Of a stretch of 64,000 nucleotides of DNA, positions 11,156 to 56,406 are shown piece by piece. Origin of the DNA: an uncultured delta proteobacterium. GTDB lineage: Bacteria; Desulfobacterota; Desulfobacteria; Desulfobacterales; SpSt-501. A program made the position numbers and the translations under genes. Below the pieces are notes generated by a model. That model saw nothing but the letters and a program-made list of their open reading frames with translations. It did no database searches and had not been told where the DNA came from. Location: NCBI GenBank assembly GCA_963716785.1, contig CAVQUW010000025.1:70601-134600 (forward strand). Direction: 5' to 3'. How positions within the stretch are numbered: position 1 is the stretch's first letter; each line of letters starts with the position of its first letter.

Positions 11156-11221
11156 GGGCTAAAAGCCTTCAGTCTTCAGTCTTCAGCCTGCTTTTAGTGC
11201 TAAAAGTCATCCCGCTTGACA
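11156..11221 (+). repeat. intergenic element family A, copy a (CTAAAAG stem, 3x CTTCAGY heptamers, AAGTCATC box)
   Basis: gggctaaaagCCTTCAGTCTTCAGTCTTCAGCCTgcttttagtgctaAAAGTCATCccgcTTGACa. Related copies at 26435 and 56346. Confidence 0.7.
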
Positions 11222-11244
11222 TTTGCCCTCGCGGCAGTGAATAT
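11216..11244 (+). promoter_or_regulatory. candidate sigma70 promoter (TTGACA-17 nt-GAATAT)
   Basis: TTGACA at 11216-11221 and GAATAT at 11239-11244, upstream of the gene at 11332. Confidence 0.4.
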
Positions 11245-11331
11245 CGCCATAGGTCGAATCAGCGCCGAAAACCCGAATCGCCGGGGCGGTCGCATGCCCC
11301 AGCATGTCCGCTCCGACAGAAAGGACCCGCC

Positions 11332-11709
11332 ATGCCGAACCCCATCGTTGTAGAGATCAAGACCGTTGCGCTGCGCGGCGAGTTTTTCGACACCCCGGCC
11401 GGCCGGGCCATGGCCGATGCTCTGCCCATTGAATGCCGTTGGTCGCGCTGGGGTGATGAATACTACGGGGCCACCCGGCCTGCTTTCGGTGTCTTCCCGG
11501 GCGAGACGACCGACCGCATGGAAGTGGGGGACCTGGCCTACCACGCGGAGAGCGGTTGGTTTTGCCTTTTTTTCGGGCCGACCCCGGCCAGCCGCGATCG
11601 GGAGCCGCGCGCCGCGGTCCCGGTCCTGAAGGTCGGAAGAGTCGACGGGGATTGGGACGCGGTCAAGGCTCTCGGGCCGGCGGTCGCGGCCACCGTCCGG
11701 GCGGCGTGA
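11332..11709 (+). CDS. cyclophilin-like-fold family protein
   Basis: 125 aa from ATG 11332 (MPNPIVVEIKTVALRGEFFDTPAGRAMADALP...GWFCLFFGPTP). This pattern is typical of the cyclophilin-like superfamily of small proteins. Confidence 0.6.
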   Translation: MPNPIVVEIKTVALRGEFFDTPAGRAMADALPIECRWSRWGDEYYGATRPAFGVFPGETTDRMEVGDLAYHAESGWFCLFFGPTPASRDREPRAAVPVLKVGRVDGDWDAVKALGPAVAATVRAA

Positions 11710-11737
11710 GCCGCCTCGCCCCGCGCCCTCTTCGGAT

Positions 11738-11767
11738 GTAAACCAATTGAGCCCACGGGTCGTCTAA
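11738..11767 (+). promoter_or_regulatory. ECF-type promoter (GTAAACC-N16/17-CGTCTAA)
   Basis: An AAC...CGTC spacing of 17 nt matches the generic ECF sigma autoregulated promoter architecture. It lies 60 nt upstream of the sigma gene ORF. Confidence 0.5.
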
Positions 11768-11827
11768 CCTGTTCAAAACTCAGCATTTGGACCCGGCAAG
11801 AGACCAAGAACGAAGATTCGCAAGCGG

Positions 11828-12604
11828 GTGACATCATCCATCATCGTGAAGGCGAGCGAACCGATAAGGCGTATCGAGGAACCGGCCGCGGTGAAAGCAC
11901 CGGATGGGGTTTCCGGCGGGTGCGAGAGTGTGGATAACCAGAAACCATCCGATTCGACCAACCGGGGCAGCCGGTCCGGCCCGGACCCAAAAGCGAGGCC
12001 TTCCGATCCATCGGATGAAGCCGAGCTGGTTCGACGCGCCCGCAATGACGACCCCCGGGCCATCGACCAGTTGCTGCGCCGTTACCAGCAGAAAGTCTAC
12101 GGGATCGCTTACCAGCTTTGCGGTTTCGACAAGGATGAGGCCCAGGACAGCGCCCAGGAGGCCATGCTGCAGGTGTTCCGCAACCTCAAGCAGTTCGAGG
12201 GGCGTTCGCGGTTTTCGACCTGGCTGCATCGGGTGGTCGTCAACAGCTGCCTGGACGCTCGTCGCCGCCGCCGGCGTTGGACCCAGGTCATCTTCCCCTG
12301 GCGGGCGGAGCGGCAAGAGGACGCCGATTCAAGGACCGCGCTCGAAAGAATCCCCGATCCGCAAGACGGGGGAGACGCCTTGTCGAGGGTGGGCGGCCGC
12401 GAGCTGCGGCGGGACTTGCTCGCGACGCTCAAGTCGCTCTCCGAAAAGCAGCGGACGGTCTTCGAGCTGAAGGTGCTGCAGGAGATGAGCATCGCAGAGA
12501 TCGCCGCCATCACCGGGATGGCCGAGGGGACGGTCAAAACGCATTTGTTCCGCGCCACCCAGGCGGTACGAACCCGGCTGAGCCGCTGGGCGGAAACGCT
12601 CTAG
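11828..12604 (+). CDS. RNA polymerase ECF sigma factor (start codon uncertain; about 60-aa low-complexity N-terminal extension if GTG 11828 is used)
   Basis: Region 2 (ELVRRARNDDPRAIDQLLRRYQQKVYGIAYQL) and region 4 (MSIAEIAAITGMAEGTVKTHLFRA) are both recognisable. Confidence 0.85.
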   Translation: MTSSIIVKASEPIRRIEEPAAVKAPDGVSGGCESVDNQKPSDSTNRGSRSGPDPKARPSDPSDEAELVRRARNDDPRAIDQLLRRYQQKVYGIAYQLCGFDKDEAQDSAQEAMLQVFRNLKQFEGRSRFSTWLHRVVVNSCLDARRRRRRWTQVIFPWRAERQEDADSRTALERIPDPQDGGDALSRVGGRELRRDLLATLKSLSEKQRTVFELKVLQEMSIAEIAAITGMAEGTVKTHLFRATQAVRTRLSRWAETL

Positions 12605-12666
12605 CAAGCGCTCTCCCCGTCGCTTCCCGCGGGGACTTTAGGACGAACCAGGAAAGGAGAGTTCCC

Positions 12667-13236
12667 ATGCAGGCCTGTCGCAGCCATAAAGAGACGTTGT
12701 TGCTTGATGTTTTTGGGGAAATCGCCGATCCAGGGGCGCGCCGCAACTGGGAAATTCACTTGAGGGACTGCGCGGGTTGCCGGCTGGAAAGAAGGCGGAT
12801 GGGGGATCTGATTGCGAATCTGAAGGCGGCGGGAACTCCGCCCGAGCTGACTCCGGCCAAGGCGCAGGCAATGGCGGCCCGCATCGAGGGGTCTCTCGGG
12901 GATCGGGTCAAAACAGCCGACCGCCCCCGCTGGAAGTTTATGGGGATGCCGGCCTTGGCGGCTGCCTGTGCGCTGGTGGTGATCAGCGTGGCGGGATACC
13001 TGGTTCAAGGACGGTTCTTCGAACCGGCGCGGGTCGCGGGGATCGGGTCTGAAATCCATGTGCCCGATCAGGATCTGGATGTGATCAAACACTTGGATTT
13101 TTTGAAGGAAATGGACACACTCGAAAAGCTGGTGCATGTCGTCGATCTGCCCGACAACGGCCAGGCGCCGGATGACGGGCAACAGCCTGAAACCCAGGGA
13201 AAGAAAACGGATGGCAACGACCATGGGTACGCATGA
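12667..13236 (+). CDS. anti-sigma factor (zf-HC2 type) with one TM segment
   Basis: MQACRSHKETLLLDVFGEIADPGARRNWEIHLRDCAGCRLE carries the H-x3-C-x2-C motif. A TM helix (PALAAACALVVISVAGYLV) follows. It lies immediately after the ECF sigma gene. Confidence 0.8.
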   Translation: MQACRSHKETLLLDVFGEIADPGARRNWEIHLRDCAGCRLERRRMGDLIANLKAAGTPPELTPAKAQAMAARIEGSLGDRVKTADRPRWKFMGMPALAAACALVVISVAGYLVQGRFFEPARVAGIGSEIHVPDQDLDVIKHLDFLKEMDTLEKLVHVVDLPDNGQAPDDGQQPETQGKKTDGNDHGYA

Positions 13237-13678
13237 ACGGTGTGGCCTGCTATGCCGCCGGGCGGCTCTTTGGTTGGCGGCGGCCTTGATGGTGCTCCAC
13301 ACGGGTGGGCAGGCCCTCGGGGCCGACACCCGGCCGTGGAAGGGGATTGCGCCGGCCGGCCTGCTGATGGCCGCCGGCAAGGACCAGGACTCGGGTGGCC
13401 GGAACCTGGACAGCCTTTCGCCTGAAGAAAAAGCCCGTCTTCAACGCCAGTACAAGGAATGGAAATCCATGCCGCCGGACCAGAAGGAAAACCTGCGCCG
13501 GCGCATGGACGAATGGAACAAGATGCCTTCCGGGGACCGCCAGCGCTATCAGGAGCGTTATCAAAAATGGAAACAGGTGCCGCCGGATGAGCGTCGCAAG
13601 CTCGAAAAAAACCTCCAGCAATGGGAGAATCTTTCACCGCAGGAGCGGGATACCATTCGGCAGCGCTTCAGGAACTGA
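13211..13678 (+). CDS. DUF3106-like secreted protein with repeated W-x-x-(M/L/V)-(P/S) motifs
   Basis: Signal-like N-terminus, then repeats such as YKEWKSMPPDQKENLRRRMDEWNKMPSGDRQRYQERYQKWKQVPPDERRKLEKNLQQWENLSPQER. This is a typical third gene of such ECF modules. The start could be 13211 or 13223. Confidence 0.7.
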   Translation: MATTMGTHERCGLLCRRAALWLAAALMVLHTGGQALGADTRPWKGIAPAGLLMAAGKDQDSGGRNLDSLSPEEKARLQRQYKEWKSMPPDQKENLRRRMDEWNKMPSGDRQRYQERYQKWKQVPPDERRKLEKNLQQWENLSPQERDTIRQRFRN

Positions 13679-13847
13679 TGATGGCTTTGTAAATGGCCCG
13701 ATTTCTGCGTTGCGCTTTCCAGCCAGGGTGGGAAGGTCGCTTCGGCGCGTCGGCTGAACCGCGATCGCGTCTGCCCTCCACCGATCACCGCCGGCCCCCC
13801 GTGTGCCCGGGCCCGGCCTTTGAGCATCACCCCTGCCTGAAAAACCC

Positions 13848-13892
13848 ATATTACCCGCCCCCGCCCACCAGACACCGCCGGCGGGTTTTTTG
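13848..13892 (+). terminator. candidate intrinsic terminator of the ECF operon
   Basis: A GC stem (ACCCGCC...GGCGGGT / CCGCCGGCGG) is followed by TTTTTT at 13886-13891. Confidence 0.45.
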
Positions 13893-13962
13893 TCTCGCCT
13901 GATACATGTTCGATCTTCAGACGTTCTTGTTTGGAATACCAAATATTGTGTGATAATTATGC

Positions 13963-13992
13963 TTGACACACTATATCTCTATTGGATATAAT
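13963..13992 (+). promoter_or_regulatory. near-consensus sigma70 promoter (TTGACA-18 nt-TATAAT) in an AT-rich patch
   Basis: TTGACA at 13963-13968 and TATAAT at 13987-13992. The surrounding 13.90-14.06 kb is conspicuously AT-rich. Confidence 0.6.
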
Positions 13993-13998
13993 TTTACA

Positions 13999-15304: not shown

Positions 15305-15315
15305 GGGGCCCCGGC

Positions 15316-22442: not shown

Positions 22443-22562
22443 TTGAACCGCAACAGCGCGCGCATACCCCGCCGCTTGCGGCGGGGTATGCGCGCGAATC
22501 CAAAAACGACCCCAATCCTTACGGTCGAAGATTTCCCGCAGCTTGCTGCGGGGAGATTCAAT
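22443..22562 (+). repeat. 120-nt dual-hairpin intergenic element, family B, intact copy
   Basis: A 19-bp perfect hairpin (CGCGCGCATACCCCGCCGC-tt-GCGGCGGGGTATGCGCGCG), a central CGACC..GGTCG stem, and a second hairpin (TCCCGCAG-cttg-CTGCGGGG). Ungapped, it is 109/120 identical to 47552-47671. Confidence 0.8.
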
Positions 22563-26309: not shown

Positions 26310-26434
26310 GTGACCGGCGGGTCCCGCCCGCCGCCCTTTAAATCCGGCCCGAGCATCCTTATATTCGCCATGCTTGGCGATTGGGGCGCCGGTTGGAGGC
26401 GATGGCCTGCCGTGAGCCTTGTTTTATTTTGCCT

Positions 26435-26495
26435 CTGAGCTAACATTCTTCAGCCTTCAACCTTTTCTTTTGCTGACAGTCATTACGAAGTCATC
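26435..26495 (+). repeat. intergenic element family A, copy b (degenerate)
   Basis: ctGAGCTAAcattCTTCAGCCTTCAACCT...cgAAGTCATCaag, ending 18 nt before the ATG at 26513. Confidence 0.5.
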
Positions 26496-38920: not shown

Positions 38921-39056
38921 CTTTCTTGGTAGTTTTAGGTTTTAAGTTTTAAGTGTTAAGTGAAAGAAAAAGATGACTTTCCCCTCAGGCTCTCCCCAAA
39001 CCATTGCGAAAATCAAAAACTTGTTTTCTTAACACGTAACACTTAAAACTTGACAC
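38921..39056. repeat. inverted arrays of GTKTTAA heptamers flanking a 73-nt core containing the AAGTCATC box (minus strand)
   Basis: Left arm: GTTTTAG GTTTTAA GTTTTAA GTGTTAA GTGAAAG. Right arm: TTAACAC GTAACAC TTAAAAC TTGACAC, which is the reverse complement of GTGTCAA GTTTTAA GTGTTAC GTGTTAA. GATGACTT lies in the core. Confidence 0.7.
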
Positions 39057-39062
39057 TATCCA

Positions 39063-41411: not shown

Positions 41412-41421
41412 GCCATCTCCT

Positions 41422-42335: not shown

Positions 42336-42420
42336 GCCGCCCGCGCTGCCGCCGCCGGGAACGGGGTCGGCGGAGGCGGTTTTAGCGAGATAGTCTGTAG
42401 GGCTCGACTTTTCAGTACAT
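42336..42420 (-). pseudogene. degenerate 5' fragment of a cyclodeaminase-family gene (paralogous to 48032..48649)
   Basis: About 80 nt align to 48573-48650 at roughly 70 percent identity (..TDYLAKTASADPVPGGGSA..). The fragment carries an indel and an early stop. Confidence 0.6.
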
Positions 42421-42435
42421 TTACGCTTCTCAGTT

Positions 42436-42674
42436 AAGTTTGTCAAAGACGAGATGTCGATGGGTTTGATACCGGATTTCGCGGACGAGGTCTTCGATCT
42501 GGTGAAAGAACCGAACCGCGACGGGATGACGGTGCACCTGGTCGAGCGGAATGCAAAGAAGGTCCAGGCCGTGGCCGACCGGACCTATGTCCTCAAGACC
42601 GGCCGCATCGTGCTCCACGACAGCGCCGAGAACCTGGCAAGAACCCCGAGATCCAGAAGGCCTACCTCGGCGGA
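42436..42674 (+). pseudogene. 3' fragment of a LivF-type ABC ATPase gene
   Basis: It reads DEMSMGLIPDFADEVFDLVKEPNRDGMTVHLVERNAKKVQAVADRTYVLKTGRIVLHDSAENLA then, after a frameshift, NPEIQKAYLGG. Walker A and the rest of the N-terminal half are missing. Confidence 0.7.
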
Positions 42675-42693
42675 TGCCCCAAAGTTTTTGTTC

Positions 42694-43102
42694 CTACAAT
42701 GCTGTCCAAATCTGGATATAAAGAGCGTTTTCAGTGGTACCCAGAGAAAGTTTTGACTTTCAGGTTCTGTTTGAGAGCTTTAAAAAACAACTCGATCTGC
42801 CAGCGGTCTTTGTAGATGGCGCCGATGGTGCTGGCGGCAAATTCAAAGTGGTTGGTCAGCAGGGTGATCGACTTGCCGCTCACAGGGTCGATGGCCACGA
42901 TGCGCCGCAGAGGAAACGGGCATTTTTGTTGGGCTTTTTCGGCGGCTAACACGATGGTCCCATCGCTGTCCGACGAATACCAGCAAACCGCAACAAATCT
43001 GCAATTCCCCGAATCGATACCTTTGATCAGGTAATCTCCACCCCGTTTTGTCACAGGCAAGGATTCGACATAGGCACGAATGTCAACCCGGAAGAGAGCC
43101 AA
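42694..43102 (-). mobile_element. IS4-family DDE transposase remnant (internal fragment, frameshifted, both ends missing)
   Basis: ..AIYKDRWQIELFFKALKQNLKVKTF then, in a shifted frame, GTSENALYIQIWTAL*. There is no N-terminal half and I found no inverted repeats. Confidence 0.75.
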
Positions 43103-43166
43103 CCCAAGTTTTCCATCTACTATTGTCAGAACCCCTTATGCGTCCAATCGTCCGTATCGATTTATG

Positions 43167-43196
43167 TTGACATGTCAAAATCAACCATAGTATGAA
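43167..43196 (+). promoter_or_regulatory. candidate sigma70 promoter (TTGACA-18 nt-TATGAA); the -35 lies in the 12-nt palindrome TTGACATGTCAA
   Basis: Read directly from the sequence. It lies immediately upstream of the riboswitch. Confidence 0.5.
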
Positions 43197-43205
43197 AAAA
43201 GGACG

Positions 43206-43320
43206 ATAAAGGGGAGTAGCAATTGGCGGTCATTTCCGCCACCCCGCGTTTCGTCAATACGGAAGGGTCACCTCCCGGACGCGGGTAGCGATTTCACTTC
43301 GCGATTTGCAAGACCTTTAT
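43206..43320 (+). promoter_or_regulatory. yybP-ykoY (Mn2+) riboswitch
   Basis: The 5' conserved AAAGGGGAGTAGC and the 3' conserved TTTGCAAGACCTTTAT match the yybP-ykoY signature (compare the L. lactis yoaB leader). The length of about 115 nt fits. Confidence 0.8.
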
Positions 43321-43360
43321 TCGCAGATTCACTGCGCTGCGGATAAAGGTCTTTTTTTTT
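43310..43360 (+). terminator. riboswitch-coupled intrinsic terminator
   Basis: AAGACCTTTAT...ATAAAGGTCTT followed by T9. The 5' arm overlaps the 3' strand of aptamer P1. Confidence 0.8.
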
Positions 43361-43516
43361 GGCATTCTTTCCGCGGCGGCAAATAAGGCAAGAGATTTCT
43401 TCGAAGCCGATACATAGATCCGCCAAACCAGCACTATCGGCCGGACCAGGATCGACAATTTTCTCCCAATAACGCGGGCTGGTTCGCACATCTTTACAGA
43501 AACGGAGTGTAATCAC

Positions 43517-46246
43517 ATGGCACAAAACCAGTGGCATGCAATGTCGGCTGAAGAAGTCCTGAAGCGATTGGACGTCCCTGCTGAAGGTCTTAGCCACGCA
43601 GAGGCTGCCCGGCGTCTTGAGAAGTACGGACCCAATACCCTCAAGGAAAAAAAGAAAATCAGCCCCTGGCAGATTTACTTTGGTCAGTTTAAAAACTTTC
43701 TCATTATGCTGCTGCTGGCCGCAACGGCTATTTCCCTCGTGGTGGGAGAGACCCTGGACGCGGCTATCATATTCGCCATAGTTGTCGCCAGCACCCTGCT
43801 CGGATTCTATCAAGAATTCCGAGCGGAAAAGGCGATGGAGGCCCTGAAGGCCATGTCATCTCCTTCGGCGACGGTCATCCGTGAAGGAGAGGAAGTCGAG
43901 ATCGCCTCCGCCGATGTAGTGCCCGGTGATATAATGGTGTTGACTGCAGGAGACCGGATGCCAGCCGACGGGCGGCTTATAGAAGCGGTCAATACCCGCA
44001 TTGACGAAGCCTCGCTGACCGGGGAATCCTCTGCCGTCAGCAAGGATGCCCAAGCGATCCTGACGGGGGACACCTCCATAGGCGACCGCAAGAACGTTGT
44101 GTTCGCGGCGACGATAATGACATACGGGCGCGCTCGGGGCGTGGTGACCGGCACCGGAATGGAGACGGAGTTCGGCCGAATTGCTAAAATGCTTCAAGAA
44201 GTCGAAGAAGAGCCGTCCCCCCTGGCGGTGAAGATGGATTACATCGGCAGACGGCTCGGTATCGCGTGCCTGCTCGTATCCGCCATCGTCCTGGGGCTCG
44301 GAATCTTTCGCGGAAATCCCATCCTCGAAATGTTCATATGGGCAATCAGCCTGGCCATCGCAGCCGTCCCCGAAGCCCTGGCGGCCGTTGTGACCGGTGC
44401 GCTTGCCATCGGCGTACAGCGAGCAGCCAAACGGAAAGCCATTGTCCGCCGCTTGGCGGCGGTCGAAACTCTTGGGTGCACGACCGTTATCTGCACCGAC
44501 AAAACGGGCACCTTGACCAAGAACGAAATGACCATTCGTCAGATTTTCGTGGGAGGCCGGACTATAGAGATCGGCGGGGTGGGTTTCGAGCCCACCGGCA
44601 CGTTCAGCAACGATTCCACACCGCTGGACCCGCAGAGCGACCCGACCCTGAAATTGATGCTCATGGGAGGGCTGCTTTGCAGCGACGCCCATCTGCTGCA
44701 GGAAAATGGGACCTGGCGCGTTAAAGGCGACCCCACTGAAGGGGCCCTGGTAGTGGCCGCGGCTAAAGCGAATCTCAAAGCCGGGGAAATTAAGAAAACC
44801 TGGCCCCGCATAGGGGAAATTCCTTTTGAATCCGAGCGAAAGCGGATGAGCACTGTGCACCAGCCGCCACAGGGAGACCCTATCGCCTTCGTCAAGGGCG
44901 CGCCCGAGTCGATTATCGAGCGCTGCACCCATTGGGAAAGCAACGGGCGGCGTCAACCCCTGACGGAAGAAATTCGCCGCCGGATCCTCGACACCAACGA
45001 CCACATGGCGAAGTCCGCCTTGCGCGTTCTCGGGCTGGCCTGCCGGCCTGTCTCGAACAACGCGCCCAGCCACACACCTGAGACCCTGGAGGCGGACCTC
45101 ACCTTCCTGGGACTGGTAGGCATGATTGACCCGCCTCGCGAAGAGGTGAAAAAAGCCATCCGTGACTGCAAAGCAGCCGGAATCCGCACCGTCATGGTCA
45201 CAGGCGACCACAAGCTCACGGCTGCCGCCATCGCTCGCGAGTTGGGTATCCTCGGCGGAGGAGGAGCATCGCATGAGTTCAAGACGATCGAAGGTCGTGA
45301 ACTCGACAATATGAGCGAGAAAGAACTGGCGGCCATAGTGAAGGACGTGGCGGTCTATGCCCGCGTCTCGCCCGAGCACAAGTTGAAAATCGTCGGTGCA
45401 TGGAAAAGCTGGGACCACGTCGTCGCCATGACCGGCGACGGCGTTAACGACGCGCCGGCCCTCAAACGCGCCGACATCGGGATTGCTATGGGGATCACGG
45501 GGACAGACGTCACCAAGGAAGCCTCCGACATGGTCCTCATGGATGACAACTTCGCCACGATCGTGGCGGCAGTGGAAGAAGGACGAATCATCTACGACAA
45601 CATCAAAAAGTATCTTACCTTCCTCCTGTCGTGCAATGTTGCCGAGATTCTGGTTCTCGGAATAGCAGGCATGATCGGCTGGCCTCTGCCCCTGATCGCC
45701 TTGCAAATCCTGTGGGTCAATCTTGTCACCGACGGCCCACCGGCCTTGGCTCTGAGCGTGGAACCTGCCGAACCGGATCTCATGAGGCGGCCGCCGCGCG
45801 ATCCCAACGAGCCGGTGTTCTCGAGATCCGTTCTTGCCACTTTGTCTTCGATGAGCCTCCTGATTTTTGCCGGCCTGATGCCGATTTTCTACTTTTACTG
45901 GCAGGCGGAAGGCGTGGAGAAAGCCCAAACCATCACCCTCGCCACGTTGGTTGTTTACCAGCTGTTCTATGCTCTCAGCTGTCGATCGCTCCGCTTTACT
46001 TTGCCGCAGCTTGGGTTTTTCACCAATAAGTGGCTGTTGGCCGCGGTGTCGGCCTCAGGGCTCTTGACGCTGGCGGTGATATACATCCCGTCCTGGAGCA
46101 AGGCATTTGGAACGGTGCCGCTTACCTTTTGGGACTGGAACGTTTGTTTAATCGCCGCTGGTGGTAGTTTCCTGCTGGTTGAACTCGGAAAATGGATCAG
46201 CGGCCGAAAAAAAAGAACACAGGCCGCGCCGGTTCATGCGGATTGA
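43517..46246 (+). CDS. P-type ATPase, P2A (SERCA/PMR1-like Ca2+/Mn2+) cation transporter
   Basis: 909 aa with DKTGTLT, TGDHKLTA and MTGDGVNDAPALKRADIGIAMG. GC content is lower than the flanks. Confidence 0.9.
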   Translation: MAQNQWHAMSAEEVLKRLDVPAEGLSHAEAARRLEKYGPNTLKEKKKISPWQIYFGQFKNFLIMLLLAATAISLVVGETLDAAIIFAIVVASTLLGFYQEFRAEKAMEALKAMSSPSATVIREGEEVEIASADVVPGDIMVLTAGDRMPADGRLIEAVNTRIDEASLTGESSAVSKDAQAILTGDTSIGDRKNVVFAATIMTYGRARGVVTGTGMETEFGRIAKMLQEVEEEPSPLAVKMDYIGRRLGIACLLVSAIVLGLGIFRGNPILEMFIWAISLAIAAVPEALAAVVTGALAIGVQRAAKRKAIVRRLAAVETLGCTTVICTDKTGTLTKNEMTIRQIFVGGRTIEIGGVGFEPTGTFSNDSTPLDPQSDPTLKLMLMGGLLCSDAHLLQENGTWRVKGDPTEGALVVAAAKANLKAGEIKKTWPRIGEIPFESERKRMSTVHQPPQGDPIAFVKGAPESIIERCTHWESNGRRQPLTEEIRRRILDTNDHMAKSALRVLGLACRPVSNNAPSHTPETLEADLTFLGLVGMIDPPREEVKKAIRDCKAAGIRTVMVTGDHKLTAAAIARELGILGGGGASHEFKTIEGRELDNMSEKELAAIVKDVAVYARVSPEHKLKIVGAWKSWDHVVAMTGDGVNDAPALKRADIGIAMGITGTDVTKEASDMVLMDDNFATIVAAVEEGRIIYDNIKKYLTFLLSCNVAEILVLGIAGMIGWPLPLIALQILWVNLVTDGPPALALSVEPAEPDLMRRPPRDPNEPVFSRSVLATLSSMSLLIFAGLMPIFYFYWQAEGVEKAQTITLATLVVYQLFYALSCRSLRFTLPQLGFFTNKWLLAAVSASGLLTLAVIYIPSWSKAFGTVPLTFWDWNVCLIAAGGSFLLVELGKWISGRKKRTQAAPVHAD

Positions 46247-46320
46247 GTCGATAGTCGGTAAAGTCTGCAAGCGGCCATAGAGCGACCCAAGGAACGAACC
46301 ACTGAGCCTGAAATAAACTT

Positions 46321-46608
46321 TCAGAATCGGACTTCTCCATTTCTGGTGACTAACTCACTCTTCGGAAGTTCGGGCTCAGTGGCTCGGTGTTGCCTGAGTT
46401 TAAAGTTATAAGGATGAAAACGTGGGAGATACCCCTCTAAACTTCTAAGCAGGTCGATTCCAAAAAAGCAGATGGTTGGTGCTCGAAACACTGGTGGCTT
46501 TAATCGTTGTCGCTGTTGATTTGTTTTTTTGCAAACAAAAACCTGAATAAGGCCATGTCTTGCGAGCAAATACTTTTTGCTTAAGATCATGGATTCACCC
46601 ATCCGCAA
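46321..46608 (-). CDS. hypothetical protein (possibly a gene remnant)
   Basis: 95-aa ORF in the low-GC mosaic. No recognised motif and no convincing RBS. Confidence 0.2.
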   Translation of the reverse strand: MRMGESMILSKKYLLARHGLIQVFVCKKTNQQRQRLKPPVFRAPTICFFGIDLLRSLEGYLPRFHPYNFKLRQHRATEPELPKSELVTRNGEVRF

Positions 46609-46764
46609 TAAGCAATGAGGTTTTTTCGGCTTACGACTTTAGGATAGGGTGACATTTAACACTCTCAGAGATTTTTAGCTCCTGTCAACTGGAATAATAG
46701 ATGTGGCAATCCAGTTCGTTTGCGCGTCATTTCGTATTTCCCCCAACGGTAATGGGGTCTAATT

Positions 46765-47262
46765 ATGCAATTTCCTTATTGTGATGCGCTGAAAAAAAAA
46801 GCAATCCATTGGTCTGTGCTCGTAGCGATTGCACTGGCCGTTTTCGTTTGCGCTGGGTGCTCATACAAAATCGCCCTAATTCCACGTGACGGAGGACAAT
46901 CGTCCACATCAACCTTAAGAATAGAATCTATCGGGGAAGCTTTTAGTGGGCCGATTGAACTCATTGTGGATGGATTGAAATACAGAGGGACATATGTCGC
47001 CTCACTGAACGACTACGGCTTTACGCTTCTCAAAAAATACTGCCCCCGGGATGCGGATGTGTCGCGAGAACACTCAGACTGGTATGGCCAAGCCACCTTG
47101 AAAGAACCCTGGGGCCGAATACTTCAGTGTGAATACCAAGGCAGTTCATCAAAAGGGGGGTATGGGGTGTGCGTAAGCAGTGAAGGGGAGGTTTATGACA
47201 TGATTATTTCGAAATGGATCTTCTCCGAGTTGGTTGAGTCGAAAGGGGGAAATGTGATGTGA
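46765..47262 (+). CDS. hypothetical lipoprotein
   Basis: 165 aa. Signal peptide with lipobox (AVFVCAGCS). Low-GC codon usage is consistent with its island context. Confidence 0.55.
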   Translation: MQFPYCDALKKKAIHWSVLVAIALAVFVCAGCSYKIALIPRDGGQSSTSTLRIESIGEAFSGPIELIVDGLKYRGTYVASLNDYGFTLLKKYCPRDADVSREHSDWYGQATLKEPWGRILQCEYQGSSSKGGYGVCVSSEGEVYDMIISKWIFSELVESKGGNVM

Positions 47263-47344
47263 TATCAAGAAGAATGGACATCCGGAATCTCCGAGGATAT
47301 AGGTTGATTTGCGAGAAAAACCATATCCGAGAAGGAGGCCAGCG

Positions 47345-47476
47345 ATGTCCAGTGTTTCTATATCACGCTATTTCCCCTTTCGTCGAATCACAATTACCAA
47401 ACAGGTGGTCAATGATACCGCCTCAGAAGCCCTGATTGAAGCTGTTCCCGACCGACGCTTTCACCTTATTCATTGA
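47345..47476 (+). CDS. hypothetical 43-aa protein (MSSVSISRYFPFRRITITKQVVNDTASEALIEAVPDRRFHLIH)
   Basis: The ATG is preceded by a strong GAAGGAGG RBS at optimal spacing. The ORF is below the cutoff of the supplied ORF track. Confidence 0.3.
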   Translation: MSSVSISRYFPFRRITITKQVVNDTASEALIEAVPDRRFHLIH

Positions 47477-47551
47477 CCATAAAGGTTTCGATCCACTTCA
47501 AGGCCCATAATTAGGTGGCCTTACACAAAAAATGCAGTGGGGTAGAAAGAT

Positions 47552-47671
47552 TTGAACCGCAAAAGCGAGCGCATTCCCCGCCGCTTGCGACGGTGTTAGC
47601 GAGCGAATCCAAAAACGACCCCATTCCTTACGGTCGAAGATTCCCCGCAGCTTGCTGTGGGGAGATTCAAT
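47552..47671 (+). repeat. 120-nt dual-hairpin element, family B, partly decayed copy
   Basis: 109/120 identical to 22443-22562 with no gaps. 9 of the 11 differences fall in the first 51 nt, and 7 of them disrupt pairs of the first hairpin. The 3' 69 nt differ at only 2 positions. Confidence 0.8.
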
Positions 47672-47770
47672 TGTAGATTATCCATGAGATCCGACTTACA
47701 ATAGGTACTTTATATTCGGTGATATTTTTAAATGCTGAAATTGCTTAATTTTACATTCAGTGGCGTTTTG

Positions 47771-47983
47771 TCACGAAATTCGATGAAATGGCCACTTGAT
47801 CTGAAATTCAACCTCTTCTCCAGACATCCCGCGCTCATGTTCGATGTTGATGACGGCGTCGGGGGGTATCGAAATCCGCTCCCCTGCCACCTGAATCCGA
47901 AAAGGCCTACCTTGTTGCGGCGATTGAAGCCACCCGGCCTCCGCCTTTGACGGGGGAGGTCGGCGTGGGGGTTTGCAATCCAA
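47771..47983 (-). CDS. possible AbrB/SpoVT-like small DNA-binding protein (orphan antitoxin-like); start unclear
   Basis: FRIQVAGERISIPPDAVINIEHERGMSGEEVEFQIKW resembles the looped-hinge-helix pattern (G..v.IP..v...lg...Gd.v.f). There is no ATG and no partner toxin ORF. Confidence 0.25.
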   Translation of the reverse strand: MDCKPPRRPPPSKAEAGWLQSPQQGRPFRIQVAGERISIPPDAVINIEHERGMSGEEVEFQIKWPFHRIS

Positions 47984-48031
47984 CGCCCCTTGTCGTTCAT
48001 GGCCGGCAGACTCGGCTTTTTTACTGCTGCC

Positions 48032-50833: not shown

Positions 50834-53799
50834 CGGTGATCTCCTTTGAGCAGCAGGATCAAGGCCCCTGTCAGCAGCGCGAGCAGCAGAACCATCCAGC
50901 CGACCGGAGCGGGCGGGCCCGGTTTTAACAGCTCCCCGAGGCTTACCCGAAACGGCGTGTTGCCGACGACGAGGCCGAGGCCGACCGCGGCCGGGTCGGA
51001 ACCCTCCGGAAGCTGGAGCCGGCGGCTGTAGGTGCCGTCCAGATGGTCGACGACCGGTTCCGGAAACTCCCCGAGGCCGGACTCCCACAGGATCTGGTGC
51101 GCCTGTCCCGGCCCCAACAGGTTGCCGAAGGCATCGGCCGGTCTGAGCGAAATCTCGTAGTGGTCCCCTTTCACCGCCGCCGGCAGCCGGACGGCGACGG
51201 CGGCGATCGATTCGGTGCTCACGCCGATGTGCCGCTCCACCCGGTGGCTGCGTTCGAAGGCGATCCCGCCCGCGGTGCGGCCGGAGGCGATGAACTCGAA
51301 GGCATAGGTCCCGGGGATGTTCGTGCCCTCCAGCCGGCCGGTGAACACCCCGTCGCCGGCGGCGGCATCTCCGTTGGCACCGTCGTCGTAAAGCGAGATG
51401 GTGTCCACGACCCGTCGGCCGGGAAATTGCCGCCCGTCGCCCTGCTCGGACAGAAAGAGGACCTTGCGCATCAGCGGCGTCAGAGGTTCCTGACCGCGCT
51501 GCTCCGGCACGCGGGCCAGCTCCGCGGGGGAGACGGGTGCCGCCGCCAGCCAGTTGCCGAGCCCCTCGACCGGGCGTGCCACCCGTACCCGGACGCTCGC
51601 CGGTCCGGCAAGCGGCCGGCCGGAGGCGGTCAGGCGGGCGCTCAGGGTGAGGGCGGACCCGGTGCGCATAGACTTGCCCTGAACCGCGGCGCGCAGTGCC
51701 AGGCCCGAATCGGTCAGGACACTCCACTGGTAGGGTTCGGCCCGGCCCTTGGCGGCATCGGCCAGCCGCAGTTCCAGCGTCCAGGGCTCCGGGGCGACCC
51801 GGCCCGGGACCCTCAGAAAGGCCGCGTCGATCGTTACGAGGCTGAAGGTGTCGCCCCGGCGCAGGCGGACCCCCTCGGCGGCCGGGTCCAATGGGAGCTC
51901 ACGGCCGTCCGAGCCGCGGATGGCCGGCCGCACCCGGTCTTGCCCCGGTGTGGCCCAGCTCACGTAGAAGGCCACCTTGCGGTCGTGTTCGGTGATGGAC
52001 ACTTCGTGGCGGCGGCGCTCCCCCGGCCGGATCAGCCCCGCGGGGTCGGCGGCGGCCTCGAGCTCGAGGGCGTCGACCAGGATGGACTTGTAGGCGGCCT
52101 GAAGTGCGGTGGCCGGGTCCCAGGCCCCGGGGTCGAAGCCCGACGCCGTGGTGACGTCGTAATAGCCGCCGGTGTCCCCGGCGAGCTCGGCCAGGAGGTC
52201 GTGGGGGACCTCGCCCGGTTGGCCGAAGCCGATGGCGTAGGTCCGGACGGATGCCGCGGCGAGCTGGTCGGCCACGGAGCGGATGTCGTCGATGCCCGAG
52301 GCGGAGGGGCAGTTGTGAAAGCCGTCGCTCAACAGGACGATCGCCTTGCGCGCCTCGTCGCCCAACACGGCCCCTGCCGCGGTCAGACCGGCCAGCAGGG
52401 GGGTGCTGCCGGCGGCCTGCAGGCCGGCGATGGTGGTCTGGGTGGCCGTGTCGACCGCGGCCGGCGTGGCGGTGGTCAGCGGGGTGAGGACTTCGCCGGT
52501 GCAGCCGGAAAGGGGCTGGCGCGGGAAGCGCACGATCGCGAAGTCGGCTTGGCAAGGGTTGAAGAAGGCGAGCATGTCCAAAAACGGGACGGCGGCGCGG
52601 CGGGCGAGGGTCAGCCGCCGGTGGGATTCCTCCACCCCGGGTGTTCCCGCGTGGCTCCAGTTCATGCTGCCGGAGGTGTCGAAGAGCAGGGCCACGGCGG
52701 CCTCGGGCGACCCGCCGGCCGGCGGCGGGACGACGGGGACATCCCCGGCGATCGTGATGTCCGGGGGCGGGGTCTGGTGGTGGACCACGCTGTAGAGGGT
52801 GCGGTAGATCACCTCCCGGTGATGGACCGTGTTCTGGTGACGGGCGAATTTGTCCCGGGTCTCCTGGGTCAGGAACGGTTCGATGTAGTCCGGGATCGAA
52901 TCCGAAGGCGGGGCGGCGGGGACCTGGATGGTGTCGATGTTGACCGCATCCGGGGCCAGGTTCCGGGCGCGCACGCGGCCCATGCAGTCGTTGGAGACCG
53001 TGCTGCCGCCGACGAAATCACCATTGCCGGCCGCGTAGATGGCGACGTAAAGCACCCCCTGCCCGACCGGCGCCCCGTCGGGGCGGCTGCCCGGGGCTTC
53101 CCCGGCCGGGGGGGCGTTGAGGTTTTCGATGAAATCGACGCTGGCGTCGTCAAACGGGCTGCAGAAGTAATTGTGGCCGTTGTTCAACTGCCGGGCGGAA
53201 AACTGCTCCGGCTTGGAATCAAGACCCGGCCAGCGCAGGCCGTGGTTGGGCGGGGCGATGGCGATGAACTCGGAAACCGGGATCGGCGCTCCGGCGGCGT
53301 GCAGGTCCCTGAGATACTTGCGGGTGCTGAGGGTCCCTTTGCTGTAGGCGATGACGGCCACCTTCAGGTCGGGGTTGTCCGGCTCCGTCAGCCGGTGGCG
53401 GTCCAGGATCAACTCGATGGCCGCGCCGATTTCGGCGGCGTCGATGTCGATCGAGCGCCGGTGATCGTCCGGCGTGTCGCCGAAATGGATGTAATAGGGC
53501 TCGATTCCCAGGCAGCCGTTCTCCGGCAGGTCCAGGGTCTGCTTGAAGGAGGTCAGGCCCGCAAGGGTGTCATGGAAGTTCTTTTTGTAGTTGGGGGCGC
53601 TCGCCTGCGGGTCCGGGTCGTGGCCGTGGACGAAGAGCACGGCCGTCCGGTGGGCGGGCGGGGTCAGGCTGTCGGCCGCAAGCGGGGTCTGCCCGTCCGC
53701 GGTGAACACCGTCACCGCAAAGGCCATGGCGGGGAGCAGCACGACGAGGCTCGAGAGGGTCCCCGAAAAGGTCGCAAGCCGCAAGGCGTATTTGATCAT
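50830..53799 (-). CDS. secreted multidomain protein: lipase-like alpha/beta hydrolase + vWA (MIDAS) + beta-rich region + C-terminal TM anchor
   Basis: 989 aa from ATG 53799: signal peptide, VLFVHGHD and IAYSKGT (AxSxG nucleophile-like), the DTSGSM MIDAS motif with ..VLLSDGFHN, and the C-terminal VGWMVLLLALLTGALILLLKGDHR. Confidence 0.7.
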   Translation of the reverse strand: MIKYALRLATFSGTLSSLVVLLPAMAFAVTVFTADGQTPLAADSLTPPAHRTAVLFVHGHDPDPQASAPNYKKNFHDTLAGLTSFKQTLDLPENGCLGIEPYYIHFGDTPDDHRRSIDIDAAEIGAAIELILDRHRLTEPDNPDLKVAVIAYSKGTLSTRKYLRDLHAAGAPIPVSEFIAIAPPNHGLRWPGLDSKPEQFSARQLNNGHNYFCSPFDDASVDFIENLNAPPAGEAPGSRPDGAPVGQGVLYVAIYAAGNGDFVGGSTVSNDCMGRVRARNLAPDAVNIDTIQVPAAPPSDSIPDYIEPFLTQETRDKFARHQNTVHHREVIYRTLYSVVHHQTPPPDITIAGDVPVVPPPAGGSPEAAVALLFDTSGSMNWSHAGTPGVEESHRRLTLARRAAVPFLDMLAFFNPCQADFAIVRFPRQPLSGCTGEVLTPLTTATPAAVDTATQTTIAGLQAAGSTPLLAGLTAAGAVLGDEARKAIVLLSDGFHNCPSASGIDDIRSVADQLAAASVRTYAIGFGQPGEVPHDLLAELAGDTGGYYDVTTASGFDPGAWDPATALQAAYKSILVDALELEAAADPAGLIRPGERRRHEVSITEHDRKVAFYVSWATPGQDRVRPAIRGSDGRELPLDPAAEGVRLRRGDTFSLVTIDAAFLRVPGRVAPEPWTLELRLADAAKGRAEPYQWSVLTDSGLALRAAVQGKSMRTGSALTLSARLTASGRPLAGPASVRVRVARPVEGLGNWLAAAPVSPAELARVPEQRGQEPLTPLMRKVLFLSEQGDGRQFPGRRVVDTISLYDDGANGDAAAGDGVFTGRLEGTNIPGTYAFEFIASGRTAGGIAFERSHRVERHIGVSTESIAAVAVRLPAAVKGDHYEISLRPADAFGNLLGPGQAHQILWESGLGEFPEPVVDHLDGTYSRRLQLPEGSDPAAVGLGLVVGNTPFRVSLGELLKPGPPAPVGWMVLLLALLTGALILLLKGDHR

Positions 53800-54023
53800 C
53801 ACGTGCCTTTCCCGCGCGCTCGGTGTTCCGCGCGTGCCCGGAAGCCGGTGTTGATAATAGGGTGTGGATGGATTAAGGATGGCTATGTCATCAGCTTCAT
53901 AGCACAAACCGAAGCGGACGGACAACCCGCAGCACGAACAGCGGCGGCCGAAGTCTCCCGGACGCATCCAGAGGGCCGGCGGTGTTCCGTTCCGACCGGT
54001 CGACACCTAAGGGGGCTCTCATC

Positions 54024-55139
54024 ATGAACAGCATGTTGCATTCCAGGCGGATCCGATGGGTGGTCTTGGGTGTGCTGGCGACACTCGCCGGACCAGGAAT
54101 TGCCGCGTGTGCCGAAAACCCCGGCGACGAGTTTCTGCGGGGCTACGCCACGGCCGTGGTCCAGATGAACTTTCCGGCGGCGGCCAAAACCCTGCGGGTG
54201 GAGAACGGGGTGGTGTTCGTGCAGAGCGCCGCGGTGTCCGCGGAGGAGCAGGCCCATCTCACGCGGATGCTGGCCGAGGCGCCCGGTTTTGTGCGGCTGG
54301 AGCGGGTCGACGACCTCGCCGCCATGACCGCCGCGGCCCCGGAAAAAAAGCCTTCGGGCGCCGGGTCCCTGCCGATTTTTCTGGCGAAGAAACCGCTGTT
54401 TCAGCCGCTTTTGGCCGACCCGCGCTGGCCGCATTTCTCCGCCGCCTACCAGCGCTATGTCGACGATGAACAACTGCGCAATGTGGCGGCTACCTCCTTC
54501 GGGGAGACTTTCAGCCTGGTGCGTTTCGGCGGCCCCTGGGAGGCGACCATGGAGCTGGGCATCCATGCGGGTGTCTTCGCCATTTTCGACCTGGACGCCG
54601 AGTCCTCGGACCTGATCAACGCCGACTACTTGGTGGGGCTGCCGCTGACGACCAAATGGGGCAATTTTTCCAACCTGACGAGCGTCTTCCACCAGAGCTC
54701 GCATTTGGGCGATGAGTTCCTGCTGCGCGGCCGCGCGGACAAGCGCGTGAACCTGAGCTACGAGGCCGTCGGGAGCCTCTTCTCCTACCACCTGCCCGCC
54801 GGGTTGCGTGTCTACGGCGGCGGCGGGTACATCTTCCGCCGGGAGCCGGGGAGTCTCGAGCCCTGGTCCACCCAGGTCGGCCTCGAGTTCACGAGCCCCT
54901 GGCCGTTCCTGGGGGGCGCCCTGAGGCCGGTGGCCGGGGTGGATGTGCAGAACCGCGAGGAGAGCGGCTGGGATACGGACCTCTCCCTGCGCGCCGGGTT
55001 CCAGTTTCAGAACCCCGATTTCTTCAGCCGCAAGATGCAGCTGCTGTTCGAATACTACAAGGGCCAGTCGCCGAACGGCCAGTTCTATGAACGCGACATC
55101 GAGTCGTTCGGCATCGGGGTGCACTTTTTCATCGAATGA
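54024..55139 (+). CDS. DUF1207 domain protein with N-terminal BON-like region
   Basis: Signal peptide. The PLFQPLLADPRWPHFSAAY motif is characteristic of DUF1207. Confidence 0.75.
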   Translation: MNSMLHSRRIRWVVLGVLATLAGPGIAACAENPGDEFLRGYATAVVQMNFPAAAKTLRVENGVVFVQSAAVSAEEQAHLTRMLAEAPGFVRLERVDDLAAMTAAAPEKKPSGAGSLPIFLAKKPLFQPLLADPRWPHFSAAYQRYVDDEQLRNVAATSFGETFSLVRFGGPWEATMELGIHAGVFAIFDLDAESSDLINADYLVGLPLTTKWGNFSNLTSVFHQSSHLGDEFLLRGRADKRVNLSYEAVGSLFSYHLPAGLRVYGGGGYIFRREPGSLEPWSTQVGLEFTSPWPFLGGALRPVAGVDVQNREESGWDTDLSLRAGFQFQNPDFFSRKMQLLFEYYKGQSPNGQFYERDIESFGIGVHFFIE

Positions 55140-55190
55140 GCCGGTGATCGCATTGATACCGCCATCACCGGCCGCCAACGGAGGCATTCA

Positions 55191-55647
55191 ATGATTTATG
55201 ATACCTTTGAACACATCGCCTGGTATGCGCCGCCCGGCAGCCGGCTTTGCGACGCGATCGTGTTTGCGCGCGACGCCGGCCGCTCCATCGCCGACGGCCG
55301 GCATGCGATCGACGGGGAGCGGCTGTATGCGCTGGTGTCGACCTATGAGACCCTTCCCCGCACCGAGCGCCGCTTCGAGGCCCATCGACGCTATTTCGAC
55401 GTCCAGGTGCTGATCGAGGGGGCCGAGGCCATCGACGTGTGCCCGCCCCCCGCGCCGGAGCCGCTCGAGGCTTACGACGAAGGCAAGGACGTCCTCTTCA
55501 CGCCGCCGCCGCCAAGCTTTGTATCGCTTGCGCTGACAACCGGGGCGCTTCGCCGTTTTTTACCCGCAGGACCTCCACCGGCCGGGGTGTCACCTGGGTG
55601 GGGGGTGCCGGGTGCGGAAGATCGTCGTCAAGGGCCTGATCGAATAA
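55191..55647 (+). pseudogene. YhcH/YjgK/YiaL (DUF386) family protein; 1-nt frame break in the G-run 55542-55545
   Basis: MIYDTFEHIAWY...RFEAHRRYFDVQVLIEGAE. After one g is removed the frame continues ..LTTGRFAVFYPQDLHRPGCHLGG..KIVVKGLIE*. Confidence 0.8.
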
Positions 55648-55716
55648 CCGCGTCGCACGGCGCCCGTTCCCGTCCAAAATTGATCGCCGACGTGGAAATC
55701 CGGGGGTCTTCTTTTT

Positions 55717-55807
55717 TGTGGGGGCGGCATCCTTTGGGTCATGGAGTGACAGCCTTTGTGGGAGTGGCTTCCGGCCACGACGATCGCGGCAGGATGCCGC
55801 TCCCACA
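55717..55807. repeat. REP-like cluster of three TGTGGGAG(Y)GGC motifs, two forming a 51-nt hairpin
   Basis: tgtgggggcggcatcc starts at 55717. The hairpin is TGTGGGAGTGGC...GCCGCTCCCACA at 55757-55807. Confidence 0.5.
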
Positions 55808-55950
55808 GAAAAAATTAAACATCTTTGAAAGTCAAGTTTTTGGAAGCGCGTCACGCTTGACGACAAGATCTGAGGCATCCGATCCCGTGAGGTCCGGCAA
55901 AAAAAATCCTCGCCCCGGTGGGCGAAAAAATAAAGAGGAGAAAGCAGGCA

Positions 55951-56340
55951 ATGGACAAGAACAAGTACGAGCAAGGGATGGCGGTGCGCCGCGAGGTGCT
56001 CGGCGACGAGTATGTCAACAAGGCCGTGGCCGCGACGAGTGAGTTCATGCGGCCGATGCAGGAGCTGGTGGCCGAAAACTGCTGGGGCCACATCTGGACC
56101 CGGCCGGGGCTGCCCCGCAAGACGCGCAGCCTGATCACCCTGGCGACGCTCGCGGCCCTGCGCGCCAGCGGTGAGCTGAAGCTTCACGTGCTCGGGGCCC
56201 TGCGCAACGGCTGCACGCCGGAGGAGATCCAGGAGGTCCTGCTGCAGTCCGCGGTCTACTGCGGCGTACCGGCCGGGATCGAGGCCTTCCGGGCGGCCCG
56301 GGAGGTCGTGGAGGCCTGGCAGCAGGGGCAGAGCGGCTGA
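55951..56340 (+). CDS. carboxymuconolactone decarboxylase family protein (PcaC-like)
   Basis: ATG 55951 follows an AGAGGAG RBS. The pattern GMAVRREVLGDEYV...WTRPGLPRKTRSLITLA...HV.GALRNG.T.EEI.EVLLQ.AVYCG.PA is present. Confidence 0.85.
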   Translation: MDKNKYEQGMAVRREVLGDEYVNKAVAATSEFMRPMQELVAENCWGHIWTRPGLPRKTRSLITLATLAALRASGELKLHVLGALRNGCTPEEIQEVLLQSAVYCGVPAGIEAFRAAREVVEAWQQGQSG

Positions 56341-56345
56341 ACCTC

Positions 56346-56406
56346 CTGAGCTAAAAACCTTCGGTCTTCAGCCTTCAGCCTTTTTACCAAGTCATCGCTT
56401 TTGACG
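56346..56406 (+). repeat. intergenic element family A, copy c
   Basis: ctGAGCTAAAAACCTTCGGTCTTCAGCCTTCAGCCTttttaccAAGTCATCgcttTTGACg. The stem pair shows a compensatory change relative to copy a. Confidence 0.7.

Follow-up and report, generated by a model that had tools for sequence, protein, structure and literature searches.

Family A, a low-copy intergenic repeat built on tandem CTTCAGY heptamers in a Desulfobacterota genome

A 64,000-nt stretch of DNA from an uncultured delta proteobacterium of the Desulfobacterota (contig CAVQUW010000025.1, positions 70,601 to 134,600; hereafter the window) carries three copies of a short intergenic repeat, Family A, upstream of a cyclophilin-like/ECF-sigma operon (ECF, extracytoplasmic function), a radical-SAM/SPASM gene and a TIGR04076 gene. 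Family A is a low-copy, lineage-restricted element of ~55-65 nt, and its core is a short head-to-tail array of CTTCAGY heptamers. It is present or absent between close relatives and lies next to promoters that it does not supply. Copies were counted within the 64-kb window, and ~150 kb of relatives' DNA was also scanned. The copies in the window are as follows.

11150-11211, plus strand: Family A copy a; left box GGGCTAAAAGC (11156-11166), heptamers CTTCAGT CTTCAGT CTTCAGC (11167-11187), then CTGCTTTTAGT GCTAAAAGTCATC.
26429-26495, plus strand: Family A copy b, the most diverged; GAGCTAACATT, heptamers CTTCAGC CTTCAAC (26448-26461), then CTTTTCTTTTGCTGACAGTCATTACGAAGTCATC.
56338-56396, plus strand: Family A copy c; CCTGAGCTAAAAAC, heptamers CTTCGGT CTTCAGC CTTCAGC (56359-56379), then CTTTTTACCAAGTCATC.

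The three sites are all intergenic, and a preceding sequence-only reading of the window had recognized the same three co-oriented copies. They have in common CCTnTGrGCTAAmA, two to three CTTCAGY-type heptamers, CCT followed by a T-rich stretch, and the box AAGTCATC. Their alignment contains 42 invariant columns, with a mean column identity of 68%, and Tandem Repeats Finder reports period-7 arrays of 2.4-3.6 units each at 11167-11186, 26448-26464 and 56358-56382. The shared units had been described as GCTAAAA and CTTCAG(T/C). This holds for copy a, but copy b has GCTAACA and one CTTCAAC, and copy c opens with CTTCGGT. The distances from the end of the element to the start codon are 110, 17 and 61 nt, in agreement with the earlier estimate; measured from the array, the ATG lies 49-145 nt away. 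Small open reading frames (ORFs) on the opposite strand, starting from the ATG in GATGACTT, were considered and rejected, as their lengths are inconsistent and they have no Shine-Dalgarno sequence.

Profile searches establish that the copies form a genuine repeat family, as had been proposed. In leave-one-out searches with nhmmer, the held-out copy is the best non-training match in every case (E-values of 3e-8 for copy a, 1e-3 for copy b, and 1.9e-9 for copy c). The profile of all three retrieves a fourth copy, unselected by pattern, at 8695-8762 on the minus strand of L021, a contig of a relative (E-value of 1.7e-6). Its sequence, GGGCTGAAAACCTTAGGTCTTCAGCCTTCAGCCTGTATTTCACCAGTCGTAG, is very near that of copy c; it is inverted and occupies a non-orthologous site, adjoining the same CMD-family gene. 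The box AAGTCATC occurs four times in the window where 1.03 occurrences are expected, and four or more were obtained in 2 of 100 shuffles. Three of the four occurrences lie 7-24 nt past a heptamer array. The fourth is at 38972-38979 on the minus strand, in the spacer of the liv genes, where the sequence-only reading had also placed it. A 13-mer heptamer pattern with up to two mismatches is not enriched in the window (7 matches versus 3.67 expected), so the significance of Family A comes from the joint architecture, not from the heptamer pattern alone. No further copies were found in the window or in the ~150 kb of relatives, and a test for homology among the copies that extends into their left flanks was not significant.

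The "boxes" that flank the arrays look like degenerate heptamer units themselves. In the L021 copy, reverse-complementing the left arm GGCTGAA gives the heptamer TTCAGCC exactly; by extension, the left box GRGCTRAA can be read as a degenerate heptamer in inverted orientation (approximately the reverse complement of TTYAGCYC). TTTTAGT, GCTRAMA, and AGTCAT resemble direct units; in copy a, TTTTAGT and GCTAAAA are additional heptamer-like units. The box AAGTCATC differs from a unit junction, CAGTCTTC, at two of eight positions.

The flanking units can pair as the arms of a stem in three of the four family members: CTAAAAG/CTTTTAG in copy a (nine pairs), TAAAAA/TTTTTA in copy c (six pairs) and TGAAA/TTTCA in the L021 copy (five pairs); copy b has no equivalent. 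Nevertheless, the element has no stable predicted RNA fold. The z-scores of the minimum free energy (MFE) against dinucleotide shuffles are -0.39, +0.87, and +0.32 for copies a, b, and c, so that no copy is more stable than its shuffles, and the MFE structures of the four members disagree. These values speak against the earlier description of the element as structured. The covariation proposed with it survives in part: the stems in a and c exist, the change from G-C to A-U is as described, and the L021 copy adds a second double change, but copy b lacks the stem and the folds are no better than shuffles. As the arms can be read as inverted heptamer units, their complementarity may simply follow from the construction of the element, with no need for a selected RNA helix. 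In accordance with the earlier expectation, Family A has no match in Rfam, whether at the gathering threshold or at E-values up to 10 over the whole window, and searches with sub-regions gave noise only.

The liv spacer holds a related element that does fold.

38921-39060, minus strand: liv spacer element, flanked by genes for an ABC ATPase and a Peripla_BP_6 binding protein; related to Family A but distinct from it.

It consists of two inverted arrays of NYTRAMA heptamers (e.g., CTTAACA and CTTAAAA) at 38931-38961 and 39028-39057. On the gene strand they are predicted to form a long hairpin of -41.9 kcal/mol (z = -3.98; none of 200 shuffles is as stable), and AAGTCATC sits within its inner stem. 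The heptamer types GCTAACA and GCTAAAA are common to this element and to the flanks of Family A. The liv element belongs to no Rfam family, giving sub-threshold matches to generic hairpins only.

Comparison with relatives shows that Family A is gained and lost. The contigs that cover the three sites, with their nucleotide identity to the window (BLAST), and the segment that differs at copy a are as follows.

L018 and L029, Logan sample SRR22388213: 92-99% identity; the closest relative.
L019 and L024, NCBI metagenome-assembled genome GCA_975971425.1: 81-89% identity.
L014, L021, and L025, JGI samples 3300036987 and 3300037046: 80-92% identity.
L020, ENA contig: 82-86% identity.
11118-11209, no strand assigned: indel segment with copy a; 92 nt, absent from L029 and L025, as defined by BLAST break points and alignment.

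In L029, the left flank of copy a (to 11117) is 99.0% identical to the window and the right flank is 94.3% identical over 3.7 kb from 11210. Between them, L029 has 15 nt, CCAATGGGGGGAAGG, in place of the 92 nt of the window. The right two thirds of the 92-nt segment are the family element, and the left ~32 nt are unlike any other copy. The more distant L025 has the same short, empty version. With the site empty in both, the empty state is taken as ancestral, gain in the window lineage is the parsimonious reading, and copy a is a recent arrival. The filled and empty sites (window versus L029) reveal no target-site duplication, and 15-21 nt have been replaced, which fits recombination better than cut-and-paste transposition. 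The earlier idea that the element is mobile is thus consistent with its presence and absence, copy a being missing from the closest relative despite near-identical flanks.

Copy b is older than copy a and is decaying. It is kept in L018 with two heptamer substitutions, is decayed in L019 (GAGC TTTGAGC CTTACAGC TTTGGGCTGAA...ACAGTCATCAA), and has no counterpart at the same site in L014 and L020. L018 begins inside the copy b array, a start that would fit a break in the assembly at a repeat found elsewhere in that genome. At loci a and c, the empty sites resemble the ends of the element (CCAATGGGG versus CCTATGGGC and CTCCTGGTC versus CTCCTGAGC, respectively); for these two loci, the likeness could reflect microhomology-guided replacement, a target preference, or chance. 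The spacer between the CMD-family and TIGR04076 genes is a hotspot: in the window (56341-56467) it holds only the Family A copy, in L021 it holds a hicAB pair (9777-9941), and in L024 it holds an HU gene and a ClC channel gene (7734-9836).

Three promoters or promoter-like elements lie near the copies.

11216-11244, plus strand: sigma-70-like promoter TTGACA-N17-GAATAT of the cyclophilin-like/ECF-sigma operon; resident, outside the repeat, and conserved in L029 and L025.
56401-56429, plus strand: promoter TTGACG-N17-TAAGGC of the TIGR04076 gene; resident, outside the repeat.
26337-26365, plus strand: promoter-like CTTTAAA-N17-TATATT upstream of copy b; conserved in L014, L019, and L020 (TATGTT in L019).

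The promoter at copy a was missed by a consensus scanner because its -10 element fits the consensus at three of six positions only. It is intact in L029 and reads TTGACA-N17-GATTAT in L025, and both relatives lack the element. Likewise, the orthologous TIGR04076 gene of L024 is preceded by TCATC-N3-TTGACG-N17-TAAGCT and lacks an upstream CTTCAG array. The predicted promoters at a and c are therefore independent of Family A. TTGAC, previously taken as part of the repeat, is the -35 element of the resident promoters, and the proposed mobile promoter cassette has to be abandoned, since both hexamers belong to the locus. No resemblance of the boxes to sigma-28, ECF, or sigma-54 promoters was seen by eye.

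The copies also differ in their placement relative to transcription, which had been thought to be common to all. Copy a lies upstream of a -35 element. Copy c begins 5 nt past the stop codon of the CMD-family gene, with no terminator between, and is followed by a -35 element. Copy b lies downstream of the promoter-like element, and if that promoter is used, it is probably in the 5' leader. There, the promoter-like element directly follows a GC-rich hairpin, and the 140-290 nt from it to the radical-SAM/SPASM ATG are otherwise unrelated among relatives. In L014, L018, and L019, conservation is seen across the last 30 nt ahead of the ATG, with AGTCATCAA...GCATG among them. As AGTCATCAA is present in L014 and L019 without an intact array, it is ancestral and locus-specific. 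The leader is conserved while the heptamers drift, indicating selection on the locus-specific leader and not on the heptamers. The genes downstream of copies a and c are preceded by ordinary Shine-Dalgarno sequences. The suggested orientation bias is not upheld, as the L021 copy runs against the direction of its downstream gene and the CTTCAG arrays of other phyla occur in both orientations. According to the sequence-only reading, copies with neither orientation bias nor covariation would amount to a plain repeat; the bias is lost and the covariation is retained in part.

Intergenic CTTCAG arrays are found in Desulfobacterota, Verrucomicrobiia, Pirellulaceae, Fimbriimonadales, and Prevotellaceae. 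Several of these loci have other tandem heptamers within a few kilobases (TCGGCAG x7, TTTTAGC x5, GCCAATA x5, CCTACAG, and AAATCCG). One spacer of a Pirellulaceae contig (L009, 5443-5580), just before a gene start, contains CTTCAGY x8, CTCCAGC x4, and CCTACAG x5, all of the CTNCAG type. A scan of genome contigs for an array together with AAGTCATC yielded nine loci in at least six phyla, none with a GCTAA box; the presence of AAGTCATC at these nine loci was rejected as a sign of the family, being explained by chance or by coding sequence. A scan of metagenomes for TGRGCTAAMA together with an array yielded two distinct loci, about the number estimated by chance, neither with AAGTCATC.

In viral contigs, by contrast with composition-matched controls, CTTCAGY arrays are abundant.

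(CTTCAGY)x3, IMG/VR: at least 120 loci.
(CTCTAGY)x3, composition-matched control, IMG/VR: 14 loci.
(CATCTGY)x3, composition-matched control, IMG/VR: 23 loci.
(TAACTGA)x3, published heptamer, IMG/VR: 107 loci.

Among the IMG/VR matches listed for CTTCAGY (L030-L149, e.g., L058, L071, L098, and L109), up to seven arrays occur per contig. In this set, a sense ORF starts with ATG within 25 nt past the array in 48 of 137 arrays, versus 22 on the antisense side, and the 25-79 nt bins, taken as background, hold 21 and 28. An ORF on the same strand ends within 60 nt upstream in 31 of the 48 start-proximal arrays. Their 48 leaders are composed of 43% C, 30% T, and 7% G, with a Shine-Dalgarno-like tetramer in three, and the genes that follow viral arrays include those for endolysins, major head protein, tail fibre, and tape measure. 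Frequently, a viral array takes up the short gap separating two structural or lysis genes and is followed, after 5-25 nt, by an ATG that has no Shine-Dalgarno sequence. L001, a contig from Verrucomicrobiia, has a layout like that of the viral loci (CTTCAGCCTTTTTACCCCCATG), which makes Verrucomicrobiota a candidate host group for these viruses, and L007 and L009 have this layout too. The viral TAACTGA x3 loci (IMG/VR, L187 onward) have a mean GC content of 0.39; by a crude count, 9 of 71 are start-proximal in the forward direction, and in 32 of 71 an antisense ORF begins at a distance of 25-79 nt. Read on the opposite strand, CTTCAG and CTCCAG give CTGAAG and CTGGAG, which are the AcuI/Eco57I and BpmI/GsuI sites.

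Taken together, we read Family A as a slippage-prone, indel-polymorphic dispersed DNA repeat of AT-rich promoter-proximal DNA, and we give this reading a probability of roughly 0.5. We infer that replication slippage on 7-nt units would create arrays and alter them, and that whole elements would be copied into AT-rich promoter-proximal intergenic DNA by ectopic recombination, templated repair, or some trans-acting enzyme, to decay after arrival. Such an element would land next to resident promoters and supply none, and it would have no dedicated function. Any effect on neighbouring genes would be secondary, for example by putting an AT-rich stretch of ~60 nt immediately before a -35 element, or by adding an unstructured pyrimidine-rich tract to a leader.

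Several observations weigh against this reading. Copies a, b, and c all read in the same direction as the gene that follows. The AAGTCATC-N4-TTGAC spacing is identical in copies a and c, for which we estimate a chance of roughly 1 in 30. The arms differ by two double substitutions that preserve pairing, G-C in copy a versus A-U in copy c and A-U in copy c versus G-C in the L021 copy. CTTCAGY arrays are at least 5-8 times commoner in viral contigs than the two controls, an excess that neutral slippage alone leaves unexplained. Lastly, no transposase or donor copy was identified in the 64 kb of the source genome that were covered.

The identical spacing speaks for a DNA-level regulator array. 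According to this alternative, the heptamers and inverted units are cooperative sites for a nucleoid-associated or ribbon-helix-helix-type protein immediately upstream of the -35 element, and gain of an element recruits the promoter into a regulon. The omega repressor of pSM19035 binds tandem 7-nt sites in direct and inverted orientation, a binding mode that resembles the arrangement here. Relative to conserved promoters, copies a and c occupy about -40 to -100, and the heptamers of Geobacter metallireducens have been annotated as putative IHF/HU-type sites, an annotation that is itself a guess (PMC2700814). However, copy b is downstream of the promoter-like element and 17 nt before the start codon, the L021 copy is inverted, the heptamers in L019 drift freely beside conserved bases, and the closest relative has the promoter intact while lacking the element. 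In addition, each array has two to three units only. No candidate binding protein was identified, and no protein search was made. We consider a regulator array unlikely.

Another alternative is a signal at the RNA level, in which unstructured pyrimidine-rich (CUUCAGY)n in a 5' leader or an intercistronic spacer recruits ribosomes or an RNA-binding protein (such as S1 or Csp), as proposed for TAACTGA. Among the viral matches listed, the sense, start-proximal placement of arrays (48 of 137) and their C/T-rich, Shine-Dalgarno-poor leaders point in this direction, as do the similar layouts in L001, L007, and L009. The sense orientation of all three window copies, the probable leader position of copy b, and the position of copy c past a stop codon with no terminator between are consistent with it. 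Nevertheless, copy a lies upstream of a conserved -35 element and would not be transcribed from that promoter. The window arrays lie farther from the ATG (49-145 nt) than the 5-25 nt of the viral arrays, ordinary Shine-Dalgarno sequences precede the genes that follow a and c, the L021 copy reads antisense to the gene downstream of it, and relatives without the array have the orthologous genes. We likewise consider a leader signal unlikely.

A broader proposal would cover both the viral and the bacterial arrays. CTTCAGY arrays would be a conserved cis-acting signal, a second "privileged heptamer" besides TAACTGA, recognized by a broadly conserved factor, be it the ribosome with S1 or a protein that binds DNA or RNA. 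In phages whose hosts are Shine-Dalgarno-poor, the signal would serve as a leader at gene starts; in Desulfobacterota, it would take the form of Family A. The recent gain of copy a, just before the -35 element of the cyclophilin-like/ECF-sigma operon, would be regulatory rewiring by a 60-nt element. We hold this to be improbable on the present comparison.

A structured cis-regulatory RNA, a riboswitch-like hairpin kept by covariation, would account for the two pair-keeping double substitutions among a, c, and L021. It is very unlikely, because the fold z-scores are near zero, the MFE structures disagree, and copy b has no stem; the arms form 5-9 AT-rich pairs around a loop of 22-25 nt, are equally explained as inverted heptamer units, and have no Rfam match even on short sub-regions. 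Chance resemblance of AT-rich intergenic DNA, in line with the lack of enrichment of the 13-mer, is already refuted by the leave-one-out E-values down to 1.9e-9, the independent match in L021, and the co-occurrence of AAGTCATC with arrays.

The window and the relative from SRR22388213 form a natural pair of filled and empty alleles at a defined promoter, making the effect of the element directly testable, and copy b across relatives gives a time series from intact through decayed to absent. From their placement, the viral CTTCAGY arrays may mark translation initiation or gene boundaries in hosts that have been little studied, a hint that can be tested. Should the window copies be no more than debris of slippage and recombination, they would be nothing unusual in this genome, yet still of use for marking strains and for cautioning against a regulatory interpretation of repeats near promoters.

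Other repeats and islands are present in the window. A 120-nt direct repeat of 91% identity occurs at 22443-22562 and 47552-47671, with a partial copy in L024 at ~7560-7610; it holds two GC-rich hairpins, GCGCGCATACCCCGCCGCTTGCGGCGGGGTATGCGCGC and TTCCCGCAGCTTGCTGCGGGGA, and has no Rfam match. Its second copy is at the edge of a low-GC island (~42400-48000; 40-55% GC versus ~66% in the rest of the window) that contains a 909-aa ORF at 43517-46246. In L021 and L024, homology to the window resumes at ~47950-47990, and a DDE transposase adjoins that point in L021. The sole Rfam family at gathering score in the window is a cobalamin riboswitch (RF00174; 35579-35791, minus strand; 69.3 bits).

Among known repeats, the pneumococcal BOX, Neisseria Correia, and REP/REPIN elements resemble Family A in being short non-coding repeats whose presence is polymorphic between close relatives. 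BOX elements are also modular, with a variable number of internal units, and Correia elements often adjoin promoters. However, Family A is much smaller and has no strong palindrome and no clear terminal inverted repeats. The copies lack the stably folding 20-40-nt imperfect palindrome of REP/REPIN (their arms have 0-9 AT-rich pairs) and a GTAG/CGTC head. Of the features of miniature inverted-repeat transposable elements, candidate terminal inverted repeats amount to GCTAAAAGC/GCTTTTAGT in copy a, 6 nt in copy c, 5 nt in the L021 copy, and none in copy b; the single comparison of a filled with an empty site shows no target-site duplication. Of the features of heptad operators of the pSM19035 omega type, the position upstream of the -35 element is found in a and c only, and the unit is not WATCACW.

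Family A is closer to the dispersed tandem heptanucleotide repeats, having 7-nt head-to-tail units in at least two to three copies at several non-coding sites. Tandem heptanucleotides are the commonest longer simple repeats in prokaryotes and are known from cyanobacteria, Beggiatoaceae, and Geobacter, none with a proven function or an established route of spreading. The cyanobacterial STRR heptanucleotides, which Mazel and colleagues are said to have described in 1990 as CCCCAGT, CAACAGT, and TTGGTCA, are by description likewise tandem 7-nt non-coding units, with an NNNCAGT flavour; they belong to another phylum and are longer and far more numerous. According to the summary in a later paper, units of seven nucleotides outnumber every other class of simple repeat in the 5-11-nt range in prokaryotes, with slippage as their proposed origin (Mrazek 2007, via PMC4679880).

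The TAACTGA repeats of Beggiatoaceae lie upstream of start codons without Shine-Dalgarno sequences, are phylogenetically patchy, and have no established function (MacGregor 2015, PMC4679880). Found in marine Beggiatoaceae, Cyanobacteria, and Bacteroidetes, they resemble Family A in being dispersed, intergenic, and patchy arrays of two to six tandem heptamers. Their frequent position just before starts that lack a Shine-Dalgarno sequence is a likeness to the viral CTTCAGY arrays. They differ from Family A in the heptamer itself, and the arrays in the window are 49-145 nt from starts, with Shine-Dalgarno sequences in two of the three downstream genes.

In the Geobacter metallireducens genome, heptamer arrays occur in multiple copies and are species-specific; eight inverted pairs are among them, each array made of five MTYCTGA units (Aklujkar et al. 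2009, PMC2700814). These were guessed to be sites for IHF/HU-type global regulators and are absent in G. sulfurreducens (PMC2700814). Like Family A, the Geobacter arrays (the class 3 sites and the Gmet_H4 elements) are dispersed intergenic tandem heptamers, are species-specific, and belong to a lineage formerly called deltaproteobacterial. Their inverted pairs with a spacer resemble the liv element, and their lack in a sister species resembles the gain and loss of Family A. The Geobacter unit is pyrimidine-rich (CTCCTGA/ATTCTGA), as is CTTCAGY, and MTYCTGA matches CTTCAGY at five of seven positions in either orientation. The Geobacter arrays have five units and no flanking boxes, whereas Family A has two to three units with boxes, and the function of both is unproven. 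CTTCAGY is identical to none of the described units considered (TAACTGA, MTYCTGA, GGGACCG, and the STRR units), and a full-text literature search for the CTTCAG array sequence returned no paper in a relevant context. Judged by its sequence, CTTCAGY is a new unit within a known but unexplained kind of element, the dispersed tandem heptanucleotide repeats.

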